Positions 1,460-63,860 of a DNA stretch of 64,000 nt are shown piece by piece. Each line of letters opens with the position of its first letter. Position 1 is the stretch's first letter. Under the pieces are notes generated by a model. It saw only the letters and a program-made list of their open reading frames with translations, did no database searches and was not told the DNA's origin. Origin of the DNA: Moniliella sp. 'wahieum' (Eukaryota); assembly GCA_003971905.1 (NCBI GenBank), contig RSEE01000002.1:930001-994000 (forward strand), written 5' to 3'. The position numbers and the translations under genes were made by a program.

Positions 1460-2001
1460 CGCGTGATGGGGCCCGGAGCACTCGGAGGATCAGGAATGGA
1501 GGTAGACCACACGCTGCGCGACACGGGATCGCTGGAGGCGCAGAGCGCGTACCGGAGGGTGGTGCATGAGAGCACCGCAACTCCCTTGGAACGCCGGGAG
1601 AAGGAGTTGCTTCGGCTGCTTGAACAAGCAGAATGCGACAAGAACGCTAAGTACCAGGGACGCACTCAAGAGCCGTTTTTCCCCCTGGTTTTGACGACGC
1701 GAGGATACCACGGCACCAAGACAGCGGGCAAGTTGTTTGCGCATTGGAAGGAGTTGGCTACTAAGTCTCAGTGGGAATGGTTCCTCGCTCGGATGTCAAC
1801 CACGTTCATCCATGTCCACATGCGCTTCCTAGGGTACGGGACCGGATGGCGAGAGGCGGAGGGTCCTGATATCCTGGCGATCCCCCTGGTTCCTTGACCT
1901 TAGTGGGGCCTCCAAGTAACCCCCGCAAGATGAACGGTTAGGTTTAGACGTAGCGTTCCCCCTGTCCCAGCCTTAAGCTCTGTCAATGAAATGGACGTGG
2001 T
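1460..2001 (+). mobile_element. 5'-truncated copy of the RLE non-LTR retrotransposon (endonuclease C-terminus plus 3' UTR), 8-bp TSD CTAGAAAG
   Basis: Translation RVMGPGALGG...DKNAKYQGRTQEPFFPLVLTTRG...PDILAIPLVP is nearly identical to the C-terminus of the 47851-51658 element. CTAGAAAG occurs at 1452-1459 and 2002-2009. Confidence 0.92.
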
Positions 2002-4660: not shown

Positions 4661-4867
4661 CACGTTCATCCGTGTCCACACGCGCTACCTCGGGTGTGGG
4701 AACGGATGGCGGGCACCAGAGGGTCCTGATATCCTGGTGATTCCCCTGGTTCCCTAAAGGGGTGGCGCTACCGAGCAACACACGCAAGATGAACGGGTCG
4801 GTTTAGGCGTAGCTTTCCCCTGTCCCAGCCTTAAGCTCTGTCAATGACATGGATGCAGTATGGAGAT
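4661..4867 (+). mobile_element. Diverged 3'-end fragment of the RLE retrotransposon
   Basis: TFIRVHTRYLGCGNGWRAPEGPDILVIPLVP* followed by the 3' UTR core cctgtcccagccttaagctctgtcaatg. Confidence 0.88.
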
Positions 4868-8828: not shown

Positions 8829-8873
8829 GTCCGGTTTGGACGTCCGGTTTGGACGTCCGGTTTGGACGTCCGG
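8829..8873. repeat. 13-bp tandem repeat (GTCCGGTTTGGAC) x3.5 with self-complementary unit ends
   Basis: Directly visible. Confidence 0.9.
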
Positions 8874-40520: not shown

Positions 40521-43500
40521 TTAAATTGATGGCGGTGGGAGATAGAAGAGAGCTGGGAGGGCAAGAGGGAGGGGACGGGCGCATTCCAGCCGAAATCCAT
40601 CCGATCCCCTCAAGAATGCACAACTAAGACCTTGAGTCTTACTCATCTCCACCCATCCCGACCCTGAGCCGGAAGACAGATCGCGGGACAAGGGAGACGG
40701 AGTGTGCCGCTTCTTCTTCAGGCGGGGCCGTTGAGCCGACGCGTTGAAAGAAGCAAAGTCGGCGCCCAAGGCCAAGGACGAATTCGTCGATCCGTTGCCC
40801 AGCGAGGAACCGACCATATCGCGTGGCCGATCCGACGGTGGACCCGAGGCGCCGGCAAACGGGTGAGAAAGGGGATTGGCCGCGGAAACTGAAGTGCACG
40901 TCAAATGAGGATTGCTAGTATCTTTCCCACTCTGCTCGCAGTAGGGTGGCACGGAAGTAGCCCGTGTTGAATGGGAAGATCCAGGCAAGCCCGGCGTGAG
41001 GCTGGTAGAGGTGGCGGTGGTAGAAGATAGCCCGCCAGAATCCAAGCCCAAGTTGGTCCCGTCGCTCGCAGCAGATCCTGTGCCAGATCCTGAATCAGCG
41101 CCTGAACCCGATCCCGAGTTGGATCCCGACCCGCACGACCTCCGGCCCGCCATCGACACTGCTCCCTCTTCCCCTATCGACCAAGGGGCTTGCCGAGCAC
41201 TCGGGAGCGTCGAGGGGAACCCACCCGCCTCCCTCGCTGGGTCTGAAGCGCGCAATAGATCATGTCACGGATAGTTGCGTCGGTCAGGGTGGCCGACTTG
41301 GTGCTGCGGCGGTTCCTTCGCCCTGATGAGCTCGAGCAAGGGGAGACCATGGGGAGAAGCGTGGCTGGAGGCGAGGCGGGCACCACCATGAGCGGCGCGA
41401 ATGGCTTCTTAAGCCGCCGATTGGTATTCTTGAGCTGATGCAGTTCGTAGCACCAGCTCGAGTTGCGCAGCGTCGCCATCTCAGCAAACGTGTTGGCGCG
41501 ATCGGGAGGCGTGGTGGTCGGATCCATGTCCATGACCACATGAGGCACCAGGTCGGTCAGTTGCTCCGATGTGGCACGAGCAATGTGCACCCACACGCTC
41601 ACGTTCCGAGCAGAGCGGTGAGTGGACTCGGGAGAAAAGGGCGTAGAAGTGGATGGATAAAAGCTCGATAAGACGTGAACCCTAGAGCCGTCGCTGCCCG
41701 GAAGGGTGTGCAGGACCGAGCTGGGGGACTGCAGGCGCACGGCCCGCGTCAGTGCAGGCACATCCAACGGATCGCAAACGTCCTTAAACCCACGGCCCAT
41801 CAAGTCCGAGGGCGCGAGACGCAGAACGTTGGTGATGGGAGAGAGCACGTTGAGAAAGAGCCCGTCGGTTGAAACGCGTGCCCAGAATCCCAACTGCGAA
41901 GAAGCCCCATCCAAAACAATCTGCTCCGCTAGATGGTACTCCGGTCGGGGACGGCCCGTCGAGACAACAACTTTACGTCCTTTGCCTTGTTCCAGATGAA
42001 GTCTGCCCGACGACTCGATCCAACGGTAGGTGTTGTCCTTGCAGCGCATACGGAACATGAGGTTGACCGCGGGTGCAGCGTCTCGTAAATTGCGTCCACG
42101 ACGGTGCGATGCCGCGCGTGCGGAAGCTGCAATGGAAGCATTGGAGGTGGAGTCTTTGAGCTCACGGAAGACAGGCACCACGTCGGACGGGTGGGTAAAG
42201 TTGGCAATCGAGCAACCAATCAAGTCGGACGGTTTGAACCCAAGAATCTGCTCGACCGAGGGAGATACGTAAAAGATGGTGCCTTTTAATGACAAATAGG
42301 TCAAATCATGAGAGTTCTCGAGGATTAGGTGGGCCCAACGTTGTCGGTCTGTTATGACCCCTCTCACAGCGTCGGATACGTTGCACCCATTCTCTAGAAT
42401 CCGCTCAGCAGCAAGTTCCTCCTCCGTCTTAACCACAACGGGTGGCTCCCCGGACGGAAGCCCAGAAGCCAACTTTTTCCCATTGGAGCTGGTAGTGAGC
42501 GTGCCGACTTGATGGGGCGTCAGGGAAGGGGTCCAGGATGAGTAGTTGACAAAGTATGATCCGTCTGTCTTTTCCACAATCGACCCAGGCTGTTCAATCG
42601 AGTCAATCTGGAAACCCACCATGTACTTGATTCGATCCGAGTTGTCCCACGCGATCGGCACAATGGTAACCAAGTTGATGAAGGGTCGGCCGTCCTTGCG
42701 ATAATTGATCAAACTTGCCTGGCACTCTTTCTTTTGAGCCACAAAGGAAGCCATGTGTTGGACGGCGAGTTGATCCGTCGCATACCGTTCCGAACCTTTT
42801 ATCACAAGTCCAGCAGGTACTTGAAGGAAACGGCAGTTTCTGCCGAGGACTTCTTCCTTGCCGTACCCCGTCAATCGAAGGAAGGTGTCGGAGCAGTACA
42901 CGATAGGCTGGTCGGGTAGATCCACATCCACAATCGTAAAAGAGCACGACTCATCCACTGGTCCAATCGTGACCATCGGCTTGGGACGGGCGGCTACTTT
43001 AGCCAAGGCAGTAAGGATGTCAAATCCTGAGGACGAATAAACTTTGTTAGGGGTGAGCTCGTTGGGGAGTTGGATTGTACTGTCGCGGTAATGCGTGCTG
43101 GGCAACCCGGTAGCAACGCTGAACCCCACACTTGAGCTTACACCATCTCTGGATTCGTCCCGTCCTTTCGGGATGGAGGTGTGGGATCGATTCGACGGTT
43201 TGAGGGAGGAAGCACCAAGCTGGAAACTCCTTCCGCCCGTCCGTGGGCGGCTGGTTGAGGGCGGATGCAGATCAGGGGTGGACTCTGTGCGGGACAAAGG
43301 ACGCTTCCTCGTATTCGTCTGCTCTCCCGCCACAGAAACAGATCGATTCAGCTGGGATCGACGCTGCTGATGAGCCATAAGGATCTGTTGTTGCTCCTGG
43401 AGGCGACGTTGACGCCGACGTTCTTGCAGTGACATCTTTTTAGAATACGGCCGAGCCTCCGGCGCCCCGACCGTCACTACTTTCCCTGCCGTGTTGGGCA

Positions 43501-44177
43501 GAGCCGCGGGCAAGGTTGCACGCTGGAGCTTGTGCTGCACGAGGGTACGGTGGTACTGGAGGACGCGTTGATGATAATCGGAGTTGTCACTTGGGTGCGT
43601 TGTCTCGGTAGGCTGGGTAGAGACTAGGTTCGGCGCATCGCTTTGAGAATTCGTAGCAAACGGTGGCGCCGTTGTCCCCTGACCTGTTCTGGCTGGGTCG
43701 AGGGGAAGGGTGTCTTGTGTCATGGACAGAGAGGACGTGGGGCGGAATGCAGCCATCATGTCCGAGTCCCGGCTGTGAGCAGCAGGAGTCGTGGAGGAAC
43801 CTTGGATGGGGAATCCTGCAGTCCCAACAGCGCCGTTACTTAGGGGTTCAGCATTAAAATACGACATGGTCGAGACCAAAGAATCGCCATGCTGAACTGT
43901 GGTGGAGTCAGGGAACAGGATCTGTCCAAGCGAATCAAGAGGGAGGTCGAAAATGGACCTGGTACCGCTCGGGATGCAATCCGGATCAAACTGGCCGTCG
44001 ACCGTCCGTACCATGCAGGAGAGATGAGATACCATCACTGCCCAAGTGGGACGGATCAACCAATGTATCCATCGAAGATGTTTGCTCCGAATCGGGCTGA
44101 GGAGGAGGGAACATCGTACCCGTTGAGTCGGACATATCGAACAAAGCGTAGAGGTCGAAATGCGTAGGATCCATCAT
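40521..44177 (-). CDS. wc-1: White Collar-1 blue-light photoreceptor (LOV plus two PAS domains, no GATA finger seen)
   Basis: YSSSGFDILTAL...IGPVD, LOV motif GRNCRFLQ, LINYRKDGRPFINLVT, PAS-B HPSDVVPVFRELK and WCYELHQLKNTNRRL. Frameshifts near both ends. Confidence 0.95.
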
Positions 44178-47100: not shown

Positions 47101-47411
47101 TTTGAAGCTTGAAGCTTTTGAAGCTCGCCCCCAAATGGCATAATATTGTATCTCATCACCTGCATCACCACTTTCCGCCTTCTTCTCTGGGCTCCCGTCT
47201 CCCTCGCAGCTTCAAGCTTCCTTTTCAAGCTTCACTGCGGTCACCGTGACATGTGACATGTGACAGTAGGTCAAGTGACCGGTGACCACAGTCACTAGTC
47301 AAGCCGGCAATAACCTTAATAACCGGTAACCCCTATAGATATGGGCCCTGATATATGATAGACGTTGCACACCATTTGTCACATGTCACCGGCCGTACCG
47401 AATCTCTATGT

Positions 47412-47571
47412 TGTGTGCATTCCATTGACAGAGCTTAAGGCTGGGACAGGGGGAACGCTACGTCTAAACCGAACCGTTCATCTTGCGGGGGTTACTTGGA
47501 AGCGCCACCAAGATTAAGGGACCAGGGGGATCGCCAGGATATCAGGACCCTCCGGCTCACGCCATCCGGTC
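47412..47571 (-). mobile_element. 160-bp 5'-truncated copy of the RLE retrotransposon with 8-bp TSD ACATAGAG
   Basis: Nearly identical to about 47860-48018. Plus-strand ctctatgt occurs at both 47404-47411 and 47572-47579. Confidence 0.88.
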
Positions 47572-47597
47572 CTCTATGTCATATGCAAAATTGATCC

Positions 47598-47850
47598 GCC
47601 GTGCATCTTTACGTCATAGGCACGTGCCGACCGGTGCCACGTTCCCAGCCACCCGCAGCCAGCGCGTATCGGTGATATTATAACTACGGTGGCGAAGGGG
47701 GGAACGGTGGCTAAGGTGGCAATGGTGGACCGGGGGAACGGTGGCTAAGCTGGCGACGGGGGAACGGTGGCTACGGTGGCGGCTGCGACGCAGCACCAAG
47801 CTGGGGCGAAGCCCAGCTGACCGGGCCGTAGGCCCGGTGGTCTCCTCGTA
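47598..47850 (-). mobile_element. Isolated, diverged 5'-UTR fragment of the RLE retrotransposon, head-to-tail with the full-length copy
   Basis: Matches 51391-51658: cacgttcccagccacccgcagccag, the ggaacggtggctaaggtggc repeats, the twin hairpins and terminal tcctcgta. Confidence 0.88.
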
Positions 47851-47960
47851 TCTCTATATTGTGTGCATTCCATTGACAGAGCTTAAGGCTGGGACAGGGG
47901 GAACGCTACGTCTAAACCGAACCGTTCATCTTGCGGGGTTACTTGGAAGCGCCACCAAGA

Positions 47961-50900
47961 TTAAGGGACCAGGGGATCGCCAGGATATCAGGACCCTCCG
48001 GCTCACGCCATCCGGTCCCGTACCCTAGGAAGCGCGTGTGGACACGGAGGAACGTGGTTGACATACGAGCGAGGAACCATTTCCACTGAGACTTAGTAGC
48101 CAACTCCTTCCAATGCGCAAACAACTTGCCCGCCGTCTTGGTGCCGTAGTATCCTCGCGTCGTCAAAACCAGGGGGAAAAACGGTTCTTGAGTGCGTCCC
48201 TGGTACTTGGCGTTCTTGTCGCATTCTGCTTGTTCAAGCAGCCGAAGCAGTTCCTTCTCCCGGCGTTCCAAAGGCGACGCAGTGCTCTCATGCACCACCC
48301 GCCGGTACGCGCTCTGCGCCTCCTGCGATCCCGTGTCGCGCAGCGTGTGGTCTACCTCCATTCCGGTTCCTCCCAGTGCTCCGGGCCCCATCACGCGGTA
48401 ATCGGTGCGCTGTGCCTTCCGTCCGCGCCTCGTCCCATCCTCTTCCTCCACCATAGGTTCGTTGTGGACGTGGGTGTCGGGGATGGAGCGGAGGAGCTGG
48501 AGAATGGGCTCCCGCACTGCCTCATGCAACGCACCAAACTTGGCCTGGGTGCGGGTGCAGGACATGATGTTCCAGCGAGGACATGACGCCGCACTTGCAC
48601 ATGCTGCGCGTGGTGCGGCACAGCGTGCGGAGCTGGAGACCAACCTGGACCTGCTGGTCAGAGAGCTTGAGGTACGGGACGGATGGAATAGCGGAGAGCC
48701 AGTTGTGGCTCAGCGGGTTGCTGTGCTCAACCACATGACGACCATCGGCAGCGTCCAGCTTCTGGAGCAGCTCCTGTCGACTTTGCTCCCACATCTCGCG
48801 CAGCTGGCGTTGCTTCGTAAATGCGTTGGCCCTTGCCGTTTGCGGTCCCGAACGGTCAACATAAGTGGTAATAAGATAGTCGTTGACCTCGTTGGCCGCG
48901 GCACGGGCGTGGGGCGCAATATACGAGTAAAGCGGGCTGCCACATCCTCCCAGCCGAAGAGGCAGGCTCATGAGCATGTCGAAGTGGTCGTCCTTGGCAC
49001 CTTGGGGATCCTCGTCGCCCCGGATCCGTCTGAACTCCGTACAGATGAAGGCATCAATCTCGGCCAGCACGTCGTCTAGCTCTCCTTCCATCTGCATGGT
49101 GCGGAGCAGGTGGCGCAGCTTGGTCTGAGTGCTGAGCCGCCATAGTAAGAGGCGTCCCTGGCGGGTGATGCCATCAAACTTAGGCATGTTCTCCCTCAGA
49201 CTGGCCAGTTGGGCCCGGAGCCACGATCGACGACAGTCTACCCCTCCCACACAAGTGCCCAGAACCTGCAGACCATCCACCCGAATCTGGTCCCGGTCCC
49301 GCTCGACACACTTGCGCAGGTTGAGCTTGAGGCCTGACGCGTCGTCTTCCAAAATCTCCGCGGCTAGGCCGGTAATGCCTGGCCCTGGACCGAAGATCGT
49401 AATGTCGTCCAGGTATGCCATCACCAGGTGCCCCGGCGGCAGGTCCTGTTCCAGTTTCTCCAGCGTGGGCCGCACTGCGATGGAGAAGAAAAAGGGGGCG
49501 AGGGGGTCGCCCTGCCGTACGCCCTCTGCCGACAGGACGTTGGTCTCATTTCCGCCCGACGCGACCCAGAGCTGGGTGGGGGAACCATAGATCCATCGGC
49601 CCAACGTGAGGAGATGGGGGGCGTAGGCATGGAGCGCCTTGGCGAGTGTGCGACGGCGCACAGTGTTGAAGGCGTTGGTAAAGTCGAGCATGGCGACGTG
49701 GCTGAAGTCGCCCAGTTCCGCATCGTTCTCCCCGCCTGGCGCTGTCATGCGCTCGACCATCCGTACGATAGGCTCCACCCCGTTTTGCGATGCTACTCCC
49801 AACTGGGTGGGGAGAAGCCAGCTGTTGGGGGCGATCGCTCGAGCGATGGCCTTGGCGCACAGGCGGTAGATCAGCTCCCCACAGGCGATGGGGCGGATGC
49901 CTCCCGATGCCTTCTCCAGGGGGGTGAGGCGGGAGGCCAACAGGAGCTCGCGTCCTGGGGCGGTGCCGTGGTAAATACTCTTGGTGAGGGCGGTGAGAAA
50001 GGCGACGAAGCGCTTGCATTCAAGGGCCGTTCGTAGGAGGGGCTGGGTCCACCCGGATAGACCTGCCCCAACGTCGATTCTGAACGTGGCAATCAAGGCA
50101 ACAAAGTCGATTTCGTCCAAGTCCACCACGATACGGTCACTGTCCGTCGTGTCGGTGAGGGTGGTGCCCGGCGGTACCACGCGGCCTGTGTGGGTGGGAC
50201 GAGTGCGGGTGGTGGTGTTGCCAAAGGCTGTGCCCGGGCCGAGGCTGAAGGGGTTCGCCTCTCCAACGGGATGGAGCTTTTCCAGGCTTGCCTGGGTCTC
50301 GGTGGTGAGAGGGGCAATGGTGGATTGGCCGACGAGGGTACTTGCTGCGCGGCTGCAGCCCTCCCGAATGAGGCGGTCGGCCTTGGTGACTGGGTCGAGT
50401 GCCTCGCGCGTTGAGAAGTCGGGGGGCGGAGGGAGTTGCCAGGCGCTGTTGGGGTACGTCCCGATGAGGTTGTTGTCCTTGTTGTGGTAGCGGAGTACTT
50501 CCTTAGGCACCGCTAGAATATCCATCAGGTGTGCTGACGAGGGCTCCTGCAAGTAAGCGTCCGCCAAACGGCCGAGCATCTGGAGGAAAGGGCGCTTCAG
50601 GTGTGGCGGTATCTTGCGTGTGCCTGGGCGCTCGGCCAGGGCGGTCAAACGGGGAAGGAGGTCGGCCCCCGTGTCGGTCGAGGGGTTGCGCGGTCGTCTG
50701 GTGGCGGTGGTGGTGGGGGCGCGGCGCGGCGGCGGGGGGGCGGTGTGCGCGGGGGCGCGGGGGGGTTGAGGGGTCGGGCGTGCGGCGGGGGGGGCTGTCT
50801 GCGCGGGGGCGCGGCGCGGGCGTGGGGTAGTGGGGCGTGGGGTCTCGGCGCCGTAGCCATTGGTTGGCTGTTCGGAGCCCAGCCGGGGGCTGCGGCGCCG

Positions 50901-51358
50901 GGGGGTGGCGAGTTGGGGGTTGGGGAGGAGGGGCGTGCCTTGACCCGGTACTTCGGGCACCGGGTTCCTGGCTTCGGAGTTGCGGGGGCAGCGGGCCCTG
51001 TTGTGGCCAGGGTTCGTGCAAAGGGAGCAATGATACTCGCGCTTGGAGGGTGAGTCGGTGGCGGGGGGGGCGGGGGTGGTGGGGATGGGGGTGGGGGTGG
51101 CGGCGGGCGGGGCGGGCGTGTCACGTGCCAGGACCCCAGGTGGCAGCAAGCCGGCGCCGGTCACGTGGTCAGGCATCTGCTCAGGTTGAGTGAATGTCTC
51201 ATCGACCGGCACTTGGTGCTCTGGGGCCAAAGGGGCGGGCGTGGGGGAAAGGGCGGGTGTGGGGGACGGGGCGGGAGCGGGGGCGGGGCTCCCGGGGAGG
51301 GGGGGTCTCGGGCGCCAGGACCTCCTCGGGGATCCGCCATACGGGTGCGCAACACCAT
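47961..51358 (-). CDS. Retrotransposon polyprotein: CCHC knuckle, Pro-rich linker, RT, Cys/His finger, restriction-like endonuclease
   Basis: Knuckle CSLCTNPGHNRARC. RT motifs IRPIACGE, QLGV, DFTNAFN, GVRQGDPLAP and AYLDD. Finger CKC..H..C, then HEAV, RTD..EVDHT..KNAKY..FFPLVLTTRG. About three frameshifts (near 51240, 48565 and 47972). Confidence 0.92.
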
Positions 51359-51494
51359 GGGCGGTGCCGGGTGGTCGAAATCGGTTGGTTGCCCTGCACT
51401 TTTTACCTCAGCTGCCCCGTGACACGTTCCCAGCCACCCGCAGCCAGAGTATCGGTGATATTATTTGCCCTCTCCAGCGTGGAAGGGTTCCAGC

Positions 51495-51594
51495 GTGGAA
51501 CGGTAGCGACGGTGGAACGGTGGCTAAGGTGGCGAAGGGGACCGGTGGCTAAGGTGGCGATGGTGGGCCGGGGGAACGGTGGCTAAGGTGGCGA
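51495..51594. repeat. Imperfect G-rich repeats (GGAACGGTGGCTAAGGTGGCGA) in the element 5' UTR
   Basis: Three to four units visible; a differently arranged set lies at 47686-47780. Confidence 0.85.
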
Positions 51595-54046
51595 CGCAGC
51601 ACCAAGCTGGGGCGAAGCCCCAGCCGACCGGGCCGTAGGCCCGGTGGTCCTCCTCGTACCCGTTACGCGTTATACGCGTCATATATCATAGAAGCCCTGA
51701 CAGACCTTGACTATCGCGGGTTTACCGGTTACCGGTTACCCCTTTTGTTAGTGATCGAGAGCGTAAGCACGTAAGAGAGGAGGAACTTCAATTGTGTGGT
51801 GTATATAATTGTTGTGCGTGTTCACAGGCTGCTCGCCGGAAGAAATCGATGGGGGCAGTCAGTGGTTACGCCGCCGGTAACGCCGGTTACGTTTCCTCAT
51901 CCCCCCTGTCCAAGTTTTGATCCTATAAAGATTTGTCGAGAGAAGGAGTCCTCAGGCCCTGAGGCCTCAGTCCGCAGTTCTCAGTCCCAGTCCTCAGTCC
52001 TCAGTCCTCAGTCCGTCACATTGAGAAGCATCAAGATAGACCGCACCTCCTCGGGAGCGATAGAGACCAACAGGGATGCGTTCCTACATAAAGATGTGGG
52101 TCCGTGCCAAGAAAACGTCCATGCCTGTGTGGGACGAATGCATAATAAAAGCACAGAAAAGGATGAGAGAGCCATATGTGTTCCTTCTCCTTTTTGTGCA
52201 GAAGTGGATTTGAGAGAAGTTCAATGGCATGTGTAAGGGAATTTAATGTATTACCTCGTTGTTCTGGATGTGGAGGTGGCCCTTACAACCGCACAGACGA
52301 GAACGAGACGTGACAATACTCACGGATTGATGATTTGCAGTTGGAAGGGACCAGCGTCTACAGTTCCCATGAAGTTATGGCACGTTCAGATATTGTGTGA
52401 AGGACGAATGTGGTGTTATGTCATCATTGCAGGCAGTACTCAGGCCCCAAACGACTCAGGCATCAGAAAGTCACGACTCTATACGGCTGGTTCTTCCGGA
52501 GTGTTCCTTGTTAATTGTTCCTGTCAAAGCACTGATTGGTAAATAATGGAATCTCCAACAGTTCAGGACCATCTGACACCCTCCATTCGCTTTCAAACCG
52601 GAAGTAGCGCTTATGGATACGAATGAGCATATGATAGACACATGAGCTGTGAACTATCTTCAATGAGATTCGTCAGTCATTCCAGTGCCCGAACGTCTTG
52701 TTGGCCATGTTGGTGACATGGTATCCGCGCATCATCGACATCATATCACTACCAAATAGAAGATGGCAATTTAATGCTCATTGGTACTTGGAATTCTTTT
52801 GTCGCGCTCGGCTTGCTCCGACAGAGTCGAATCAGCTCCTTTTCCCGCGATGTTCCAAATGCATTGCGGTTCCCTCTCGTGTATATCACCGTATTCCGGT
52901 ATACGCAATCATTGCCAAATTTGGACTGGGTGCGCGTTCAAGCCAAAAGGGTGTGTTCAAGTGATGCCGTTAACCTCATTTACACTTGCTACTATACGAA
53001 AGGAGCGGTACAGGGTACGGAGTTGGAGATCAATCTGAACCTGCTTATCGGCGAGCTCGAGGTACTTGCTGGCCTCGAGGAAAGTCAAGTGTATTAGTTG
53101 AACGCATTGCTGCGCTCGACCACATATTGCTTCCATGGGCTGCCTTAAGCTTCTTTCAATTGGATAGCTCCTGCCGAGTCTTCTCCCACTTCTTTTGAGA
53201 GCTTGCGTTGCGTCGTATGAATGTGTTCGTCGTGTGTATGTCCATGCATGGGGGGGATATAACGAGAGTGGTATAATAAGATGTATAGTCGTTTTTTTTT
53301 TCCTTGGCCGCAGCACGCACGTATGCGTGAAACACAACGTACCAGTAGGGTGAGGGAACCACTTCCTCCCCTTCAAATAGGAAGGTTCATTATATGAGCA
53401 TATCAAAGGGATCGCCCCTCTCTAACATCTGCGGGTTCTTGTCCCCTCCGATACGTCCAAACTATAACATCCGTCAATGCCAAACAGTGCGCAAAAATTA
53501 AACGCACTTCACAGCATACACTTGCAATTCGCGCAGCCGCCATATACATTAGTCGTGAAAGGTGCTCATCATCGGAGTGCGCCCCAGTGGTTTTTTGGGA
53601 TTGTGGGCTTATAGGTATTAATATGCCTGAAGGGAAGACCCGATGACAGATGCCGCGATGACGCCGTGACAGACGGGCGATTCTTAGTATGTCACCCAAT
53701 GGCCAAGCTCGCTCCAAGGACGAAGGCCTTCGGAGCTACGGCCTGGACTGAGCGGAGATCCTTCGAGGCGTGAGAGGCAGCGTCCGGCACGGCAATTTCC
53801 CCTTGGCCGCGACTGCCTGTGGGTGTATCGGTACAACGCTGATAGGCATATCGCACATGCACATGAACCGAGGCCGACTCTTCTGAAGTCGGTCAACCGG
53901 GCTTGGTCCATCATTATGACCGCTTAGGAGTTATGCACCCAAACGTCCTTCAGACAGGTTGTGATTTTATCGCTACCTGGACCCTTTCTAATCGTCTGTG
54001 CTGTCGGACGTGCCACCTGAGCCCTAATGCATGATTGCCTTCATAT

Positions 54047-63510: not shown

Positions 63511-63813
63511 CGGCATGTGTGCTACGAGAGTGCCGCAGCCACAGCACAGCCTCTGCCGTCAGCGCGTCAGCGCATCAGTGCGTCTGGCCCCCAGACCCTC
63601 AGACCCAACCCTAACGTCTAAACCTCAGGCCCTCCTCACCTTTGACTTCTCGCCCAAGACTCTCCAGACCCTTCCCCCCTGGTCGGCCGCTAAAGCTTCT
63701 GGCTGGGCTCCCAAAGATCGCCTTATCCCCTAGTAGACTGATAGTCGATCTTTTGCCGATAGGCACCACAACAATATAACTAAGATCGTTAAGATCATCG
63801 ACCATCCTCCCAT

Positions 63814-63860
63814 ATCTCTATTTTGGGACCGTGTCATTGACAGAGCCTAAGGCTGGGACA
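63814..63860 (-). mobile_element. About 47-bp extreme 3'-end fragment of the RLE retrotransposon
   Basis: Reverse complement is tgtcccagccttaggctctgtcaatg + 13 nt + atagagat, the same layout as the other 3' ends. Confidence 0.75.

Follow-up and report, generated by a model that had tools for sequence, protein, structure and literature searches.

How a non-LTR (non-long terminal repeat) retrotransposon ends its integration is still open at three points: the protection of the template 5′ end, the formation of the 5′ junction and the start of second-strand synthesis. This question is raised by a 64,000-nucleotide (nt) stretch of DNA from the basidiomycete Moniliella sp. 'wahieum' (GenBank assembly GCA_003971905.1, contig RSEE01000002.1, positions 930,001 to 994,000, forward strand), here called the window. 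On its minus strand, the window carries an R2-like non-LTR retrotransposon, and near the 5′ end of this element two short, perfect hairpins stand side by side. Do these twin hairpins act in the element RNA, in the DNA, or not at all? We tentatively favor, with a probability of roughly 0.42, that they form a family-specific structured module at the RNA 5′ end, with a possible role in stability or recognition. Here, we will describe the hairpins and the element that carries them, weigh the explanations for their presence, and compare them with known systems.

Twin hairpins behind a short leader

Both hairpins are perfect palindromes with an 8-base pair (bp) stem and a 3-nt loop, separated by a 2-nt spacer (CG), and they occupy positions +13 to +52 of the element RNA, behind a 12-nt leader (Table 1). 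All stem pairs are Watson–Crick (16/16), with no G·U wobble. On the plus strand, the loops of both hairpins (2/2) read G-N-A with a C·G closing pair, and on the RNA strand they read UUC and UAC. A first-pass annotation of the window, made from the letters alone, had reported the sequences and positions of both hairpins, the CG spacer and an ACC/GGT bracket, all of which are exact in the plus strand. Its reading of the loops likewise holds: GNA with C-G closing on the strand of complementary DNA (cDNA) sense, and a UUC/UAC register on the RNA in which a UNCG tetraloop is unavailable. The distance of 10 nt to the element end that it had given becomes 12 nt to position 51657 by comparison of the two copies described below, or 9 nt with the whole CGTACC flank repeat taken into account.

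Perfect palindromes of the 8-bp/3-nt type occur four times in the window, three of them belonging to the retrotransposon; 100 dinucleotide shuffles contained 1.01 on average and at most 4. At about one per 64 kb, two such palindromes only 2 nt apart are not a chance arrangement. The 60-nt stretch that holds both hairpins folds at −39.1 kcal/mol as RNA and −20.2 kcal/mol as DNA (z-score −3.9 in either case), beating 200/200 shuffles each time. On its own, hairpin 1 reaches −15.3 kcal/mol as RNA and −9.6 kcal/mol as DNA, and hairpin 2 −15.5 and −9.2 kcal/mol, with the same DNA value for either strand. Outside the pair, ACC (51601–51603) and GGT (51646–51648) pair with each other in a three-way junction predicted for the RNA. 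The T shape that had been proposed from this bracket thus survives as a predicted junction; in a related copy from a public DNA run (X2), however, a 2-nt deletion at 51603 falls within the ACC bracket, which makes the T-shaped closing stem the weakest part of the description. Of two public DNA runs compared with the window, one contains copies at 95–99% identity.

Hairpin 1 was recovered a second time in the window by an exact-pattern search (47820–47838), and the hairpins of this second copy span 47799–47838. Retention of the structure at 47795–47841 with one C fewer had been claimed, and this stands for hairpin 1, which is identical; hairpin 2 (47799–47818) has lost one base and refolds. Its minimum-energy fold is a 7-bp stem (AGCTGGG/CCCAGCT) with a 6-nt loop, the GAA triloop being available only with a bulge, and its stability amounts to −11.1 versus −15.5 kcal/mol in the first copy as RNA (−6.7 versus −9.2 kcal/mol as DNA). 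Over the first ~68 nt, the 5′ units of the two copies (A1 and A2) show 3 differences: one G fewer in the leader, the base missing from hairpin 2, and a C>T substitution at the stem base of hairpin 2. The C>T change adds one pair at the base of the damaged stem, so that base loss and substitution together hint at compensation, although this is a single event and neutral between the strands. The surrounding untranslated region had been described as diverged, which is true of a tandem-repeat tract, where most of the A1/A2 divergence lies. It is not true of the first ~68 nt, nor of a second block of ~60 nt on the far side of the tract (around 51411–51470), which is as conserved as the hairpin block.

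Self-cleaving RNA was the alternative that the first-pass annotation wished to see excluded, and it finds no support at the sequence level. No Rfam family reached its gathering score in the window, and a permissive search of 51300–51800 on both strands (4227 families, E-values up to 10; hammerhead, twister, other small ribozymes and the Alu domain of the signal recognition particle RNA included) gave 0 matches. An HDV-like (hepatitis delta virus-like) ribozyme was rejected on sequence grounds: besides the lack of an Rfam match, a loose descriptor returned only low-quality candidates, and those common to both copies need hairpin 1 to be melted and would, upon cleavage, remove the conserved 12-nt leader.

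Table 1. Coordinates of the twin hairpins, the retrotransposon and its derivative in the window
Feature	Position	Strand	Description
5′ leader of element RNA	51646–51657	−	12 nt, ACGAGGAGGACC; 5′ end set where the similarity of the two copies stops; corresponds to the unpaired 3′ tail on the cDNA
Hairpin 1 (first in RNA sense)	51627–51645	−	RNA ACCGGGCC-UAC-GGCCCGGU; plus (cDNA) strand ACCGGGCC-GTA-GGCCCGGT
Hairpin 2 (second in RNA sense)	51606–51624	−	RNA GCUGGGGC-UUC-GCCCCAGC; plus strand GCTGGGGC-GAA-GCCCCAGC; contains the heptamer GCGAAGC
5′ untranslated region, unit A1	51408–51657	−	terminal conserved block with hairpins, variable repeat tract, second conserved block at ~51411–51470
Open frame, 961 codons	48522–51407	−	proline-rich N-terminal part, CX2CX4HX4C zinc knuckle, reverse transcriptase domain; stops inside C-terminal Cys/His motif
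Second frame	47939–48709	−	remainder of the putative C-terminal restriction-like endonuclease region, by hhalign to the family profile
3′ part and 3′ untranslated region	47850–48521	−	last ~170 nt form unit B1; terminus ...TAGAGAT, without poly(A)
447-bp derivative	47403–47849	−	A2, short unique linker and B2; from ~250 nt of the 5′ end and ~170 nt of the 3′ end
CGTACC flank repeat	51655–51660 and 47395–47400		just outside the composite; 3-nt overlap with the element's conserved 5′ ACG

An R2-like element and its fused derivative

Judged by its sequence, the element belongs to the R2-like non-LTR retrotransposons and is dispersed in its basidiomycete host, in agreement with the earlier assignment to the non-LTR class with the plus strand as first-strand cDNA sense. 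Its main frame contains a reverse transcriptase domain (Pfam RVT_1, E-value 7e-17, residues 498–713), and a profile of 26 family members, compared with the PDB, finds R2 proteins best (E-value 4e-20), with LINE-1 ORF2p far weaker (E-value 4e-6). At least 120 relatives at 32–42% identity, some of them at 40–41%, are present in the protein database, and the named ones among the matches listed are mostly basidiomycetes (Tilletia, Kwoniella), with one ascomycete, Cladobotryum. The alignment of 26 relatives has the C-terminal consensus CxxCG..GHDEVC followed by ..EP..RRND.R..G...E.D..VVSL, a restriction-like endonuclease pattern in which the catalytic residues were read by eye, no library model naming an endonuclease. 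Residues 59–233 of the second frame align to columns 859–1022 of the family profile (hhalign, probability 99%, E-value 8e-18), and the gene being split by a frameshift, the copy in the window is probably defective. No Pfam match to an AP (apurinic/apyrimidinic) endonuclease was obtained in the element proteins.

The element bears the marks of target-primed reverse transcription, namely 5′-truncated copies with a common 3′ region and probable target-site duplications (CTAGAAAG and CGTACC). Three truncated copies are found in the window, at 1460–1996 (plus strand, 94% identity), 4661–4867 (plus strand, 84%) and 63813–63860 (minus strand, 83%). The first of these is bordered by CTAGAAAG, and the other two have the terminus ...AGAGAT without poly(A) in common; the last ~15 nt of the 3′ ends of the truncated copies differ. 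Next to the element lies a homologue of white-collar-1, a blue-light receptor with LOV/PAS domains (41174–44173, minus strand), whose best named relatives are Ustilaginomycotina at ~50% identity, in line with a host close to that group. Short TTACCGG/CCGGTAA-like repeats (ttaccggttaccggttacc, cgccggtaacgccggttac, aataaccggtaacccc) are present on either side of the insertion (51661–51760, 51860–51895 and 47300–47330), and a comparison of the left and right insertion flanks gave a longest match of 19 nt and nothing further. Elsewhere in the window (8838–8871), two overlapping perfect palindromes, GGACGTCC-GGTTT-GGACGTCC, form a small repeat array.

Within the 5′ region, tandem repeats of 25/34 nt (GGTGGCTAAGGTGGCGA-like units) run over ~51473–51594 and 47686–47781, with unequal copy number between the two copies, and a public run shows a 60-nt change in repeat number at 51501–51562. 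These repeats are a possible internal promoter or protein-binding array, and they bear on one explanation of the hairpins themselves: as double-stranded DNA binding sites for dimeric proteins, the palindromes could form part of an internal promoter just downstream of the transcription start. A dispersed element (copies at 1460, 4661 and 63813) needs a promoter of its own, and perfect palindromes are typical for dimer sites. The two palindromes also have a common half-site, N-C-N-G-G-G-N-C, with 5/8 arm positions alike, and a covariance model built for one strand scores 26.7 bits on the other. Furthermore, hairpin 1 holds CGG-N9-CCG, and inverted CGG pairs are the kind of site bound by fungal zinc-cluster factors. 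However, with 3 bp between the 8-bp arms, the palindromes are tightly spaced for most dimeric factors, and the adjacent tandem repeats are at least equally good promoter candidates; we consider a promoter role for the hairpins quite unlikely.

The junction with the second copy bears on where the RNA terminus lies. In RNA sense, the order is A1 (51657 to 51408), the open reading frame, B1 (ending at 47850), A2 (47849 to ~47600), the linker and B2 (ending at 47403). The terminus of B1 (...AGAGAT) abuts the start of A2 (ACGAGGAG) head to tail, without a spacer, at the junction 47850/47849. The two CGTACC repeats probably represent a target-site duplication around the whole composite. The simplest reading, then, is a single insertion, in which a short RNA (A2–B2) would have been copied first, the enzyme then jumping end to end to the 3′ terminus of a full-length RNA. 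An "extra template" class of junction is listed for R2 proteins in passages of Palm et al. (PMC11331408), and a public run contains another head-to-tail joint (51649/51454) with the same leader. Reading the junction as end to end sets the RNA 5′ end at 51657. Together, tandem junction and flank repeat would document, cleanly and in a natural setting, a template jump from end to end, one that fixes both RNA termini.

In two contigs of a related element (loci L017 and L024), the same ~4.95-kb unit appears in circularly permuted order, which points to tandem arrays or circular forms among relatives as well. A DIRS/Ngaro tyrosine-recombinase element, whose A1–ORFs–B1–A2–B2 repeat layout would fit (ORFs, open reading frames), was considered and rejected, as the coding part is R2-like, with a putative restriction-like endonuclease; Pfam found no recombinase domain in the element frames.

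RNA module, passenger or DNA signal

In the reading that we favor, the transcript would start with its 12-nt leader, followed by the two very stable stem-loops. These would shield the template from 5′-to-3′ decay until reverse transcription arrives at the end, and they may also flag the 5′ end for the element's own CCHC-knuckle protein. They would thereby take the place of the HDV-like ribozyme fold of R2, without cleavage. That RNA is the acting form, and that the structure has such a role, we infer. The 447-bp derivative, which is built only from the two element ends, keeps the hairpin block, and this fits with cis-acting signals residing in the ends. For R2 proteins, passages of Palm et al. 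(PMC11331408) report that insertion became more efficient when the template 5′ end carried a thermodynamically stable fold; the authors attribute the gain to a shielding against 5′ decay, in which the fold may stand in for a cap. The location of the hairpins at the template 5′ end, their high stability as RNA and the R2 kinship of the element also speak for this reading, as does the possible compensation in copy 2.

Several points weigh against an RNA module. According to the same passages (PMC11331408), a 5′ module with a simple stem-loop fell clearly short of a ribozyme fold. The hairpin block differs by ~4% between the two copies, no less than the other conserved block, so its retention is explained by the young age of the copies at least as well as by constraint. 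The twin-hairpin structure appears specific to one element family and is not conserved in relatives, within the limits set by cut contigs and by 5′ ends of the relatives that are not fixed. Finally, there is no strand signal: the wholly Watson–Crick stems contain no G·U pair that would mark RNA, and the sole variant is strand-neutral. To our knowledge, C-UNC-G triloops have no special stability in RNA. The same loops on the other strand take the textbook d(C-GNA-G) form.

The family specificity derives from a comparison with 79 related loci from metagenome contigs (25–52% identity in the best protein segment), many of which are cut. The nearest relatives (L038, L058, L037, L036 and L014) are degenerate, with many short frames, and hairpin scans covered whole upstream regions rather than defined 5′ ends. 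Compared with the 79 loci by blastn, the 5′ and 3′ regions gave chance-level matches only (13–41 nt), and a 15-mer common to L038, L050 and L049 was dismissed, as it sits in unrelated sequence. A scan for two adjacent perfect hairpins (stem of at least 6 bp, loop of 3–7 nt, gap of at most 8 nt) returned matches in 15 of the 79 loci, mostly AT-rich or within or downstream of the coding part, and no locus showed 3-nt loops in both hairpins or 8-bp stems in both. Among the 49 loci with sequence upstream of the reverse transcriptase match, hairpins at or below −12 kcal/mol occurred singly in 7 and paired in none. Likewise, a covariance model built from the two copies recovered nothing beyond them in the window and the 79 loci (511 kb in total), the best other match (13.7 bits, E-value 2.1) lying on the wrong strand. 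The first-pass annotation had looked to homologues for covarying stems around an invariant G-N-A loop, and no such support was obtained: the 79 loci gave neither a covariance-model match on the element strand nor comparable twin hairpins. Outside the family, exact hairpin patterns had 0 matches in viral contigs, and 12 matches to a 19-mer in prokaryote genomes, all in bacterial contigs without the partner hairpin, were taken as chance.

Absence from all relatives compared is what one would expect of hairpins that are passengers without a function of their own, either relics of fold-back or template switching at an ancestral 5′ end or captured host sequence, carried along because the family is young. 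The two comparable copies are ~96% alike in the hairpin block, no more than in other non-repeat parts of the 5′ region, and the window copy is itself probably defective. Snap-back and extra-template products are, moreover, documented for R2-type enzymes in passages of Palm et al. (PMC11331408). Fold-back copying would, however, run beyond 8 nt and copy neighboring sequence, which makes it hard to obtain an identical 8+3+8 geometry twice; the lack of any Rfam match means that no known host RNA was captured, and the C>T change that lengthens the damaged stem of copy 2 hints at selection. On balance, we regard the passenger explanation as unlikely, though worth serious attention.

The symmetry between the strands brings in the explanation with which the hairpins were first reported, a signal in the first-strand cDNA. 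Here, two d(C-GNA-G) mini-hairpins would form near the cDNA 3′ end after displacement of the RNA, and would protect the end or position the 12-nt tail for joining to the upstream target or for second-strand synthesis. The loops do fit the part, with hairpin 2 holding the exact heptamer GCGAAGC; a fit of both loops on one strand would arise about once in 128 by chance (a rough, post hoc calculation), and GNA or TNC loops occur in 0/11 of the other palindromes with 3-nt loops in the window (stem of at least 7 bp). Perfect stems without wobble are as expected where a DNA strand must fold, and the CGTACC repeat overlaps the cDNA tail by its final 3 nt, an arrangement compatible with a free tail that anneals during 5′ joining. 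On the other hand, the hairpins are not terminal: behind them lies the 12-nt unpaired 3′ tail, so they cannot self-prime, which speaks against the second-strand priming that had been suggested. The cDNA arises as an RNA:DNA hybrid of ~40 GC-rich pairs, from which RNA would have to be removed before extrusion, the best DNA fold of hairpin 2 in copy 2 has the 6-nt loop instead of the GAA triloop, and conservation among relatives is lacking. Computed DNA energies are equal for the GNA and TNC strands, so the nearest-neighbor DNA model offers no way to judge whether GNA loops are special, as the explanation presumes.

We consider this cDNA signal very unlikely. Its most specific version, a long shot in our estimate, holds that once the RNA 5′ end is peeled off, the C-GNA-G mini-hairpins would close 12 nt from the cDNA 3′ end and keep the tail single-stranded and protected, ready for annealing to the upstream target (through the 3-nt CGTACC overlap) or for a template jump. 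If true, 5′ junction formation, a poorly understood step of non-LTR integration, would have in these cDNA hairpins a cis signal at the level of DNA. What stands of the original proposal is that the loops fit d(C-GNA-G); no result favors action as DNA. The palindromes fold on both strands, contain no wobble pairs and vary in a strand-neutral manner, so the data do not separate RNA from DNA action. The observation is sound, and the strand-symmetric data leave a DNA-level mechanism without support and, to our mind, very improbable.

Comparison with known systems

The plus-strand loops are of the same kind as those of d(GCGAAGC)-type mini-hairpins, sharing the G-N-A loop on a C·G pair and, in hairpin 2, the exact heptamer. 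Such C-GNA-G mini-hairpins occur at the origins of single-stranded DNA phages and similar places. Those cases act in naturally single-stranded DNA, whereas here the strand starts as an RNA:DNA hybrid, the hairpins are non-terminal and the best fold of copy 2 lacks the triloop. For GNA triloop hairpins in retrotransposons, we found no description in open-access full text, in a narrow check that left most subscription journals outside.

The 447-bp derivative calls to mind RIME (from ingi) and NARTc (from L1Tc) of trypanosomes, which are short non-autonomous derivatives of the ends of non-LTR elements. RIME keeps both ends of ingi, and the 447-bp unit likewise joins ~250 nt of the 5′ end to ~170 nt of the 3′ end and retains the 5′ terminal block. 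In contrast to RIME and NARTc, there is a single unit here, joined head to tail with a full copy, and one pair of flank repeats encloses both, so the derivative may be a product of template jumping rather than a proven mobile family.

MoTeR and FoTeR, as described in parts of a paper on FoTeR (PMC12857005), are, like the window element, fungal, with a reverse transcriptase, a restriction-like endonuclease, putative in the window element, and variable 5′ tandem repeats, a likeness by features and not by tree. The main text of that paper (PMC12857005) makes no mention of a hairpin, stem-loop, ribozyme or palindrome. Unlike MoTeR and FoTeR, which sit in telomere repeats, the window element lies beside the white-collar-1 gene and has dispersed truncated copies.

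The closest parallel is R2, whose HDV-like 5′ ribozyme fold (also known from RTE, Baggins and L1Tc) is likewise a stable, GC-rich RNA structure placed right at the 5′ terminus of a non-LTR element, and in this case the proteins of both elements are R2-like. The twin hairpins differ from that fold in lacking a nested double pseudoknot: they are two plain stem-loops, from which no self-cleavage is expected. Recent work on R2 indicates that the stability of the fold, and not cleavage, matters for insertion. The novelty here would be that the structured 5′ module of an R2-like element consists of plain twin hairpins where R2 has its ribozyme fold; with one family and two copies, we regard it as a lead. 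A fungal R2-like element with two plain, very stable hairpins at the position of the R2 ribozyme fold may thus offer a simple natural alternative to it, in the shape of a compact 5′ module.

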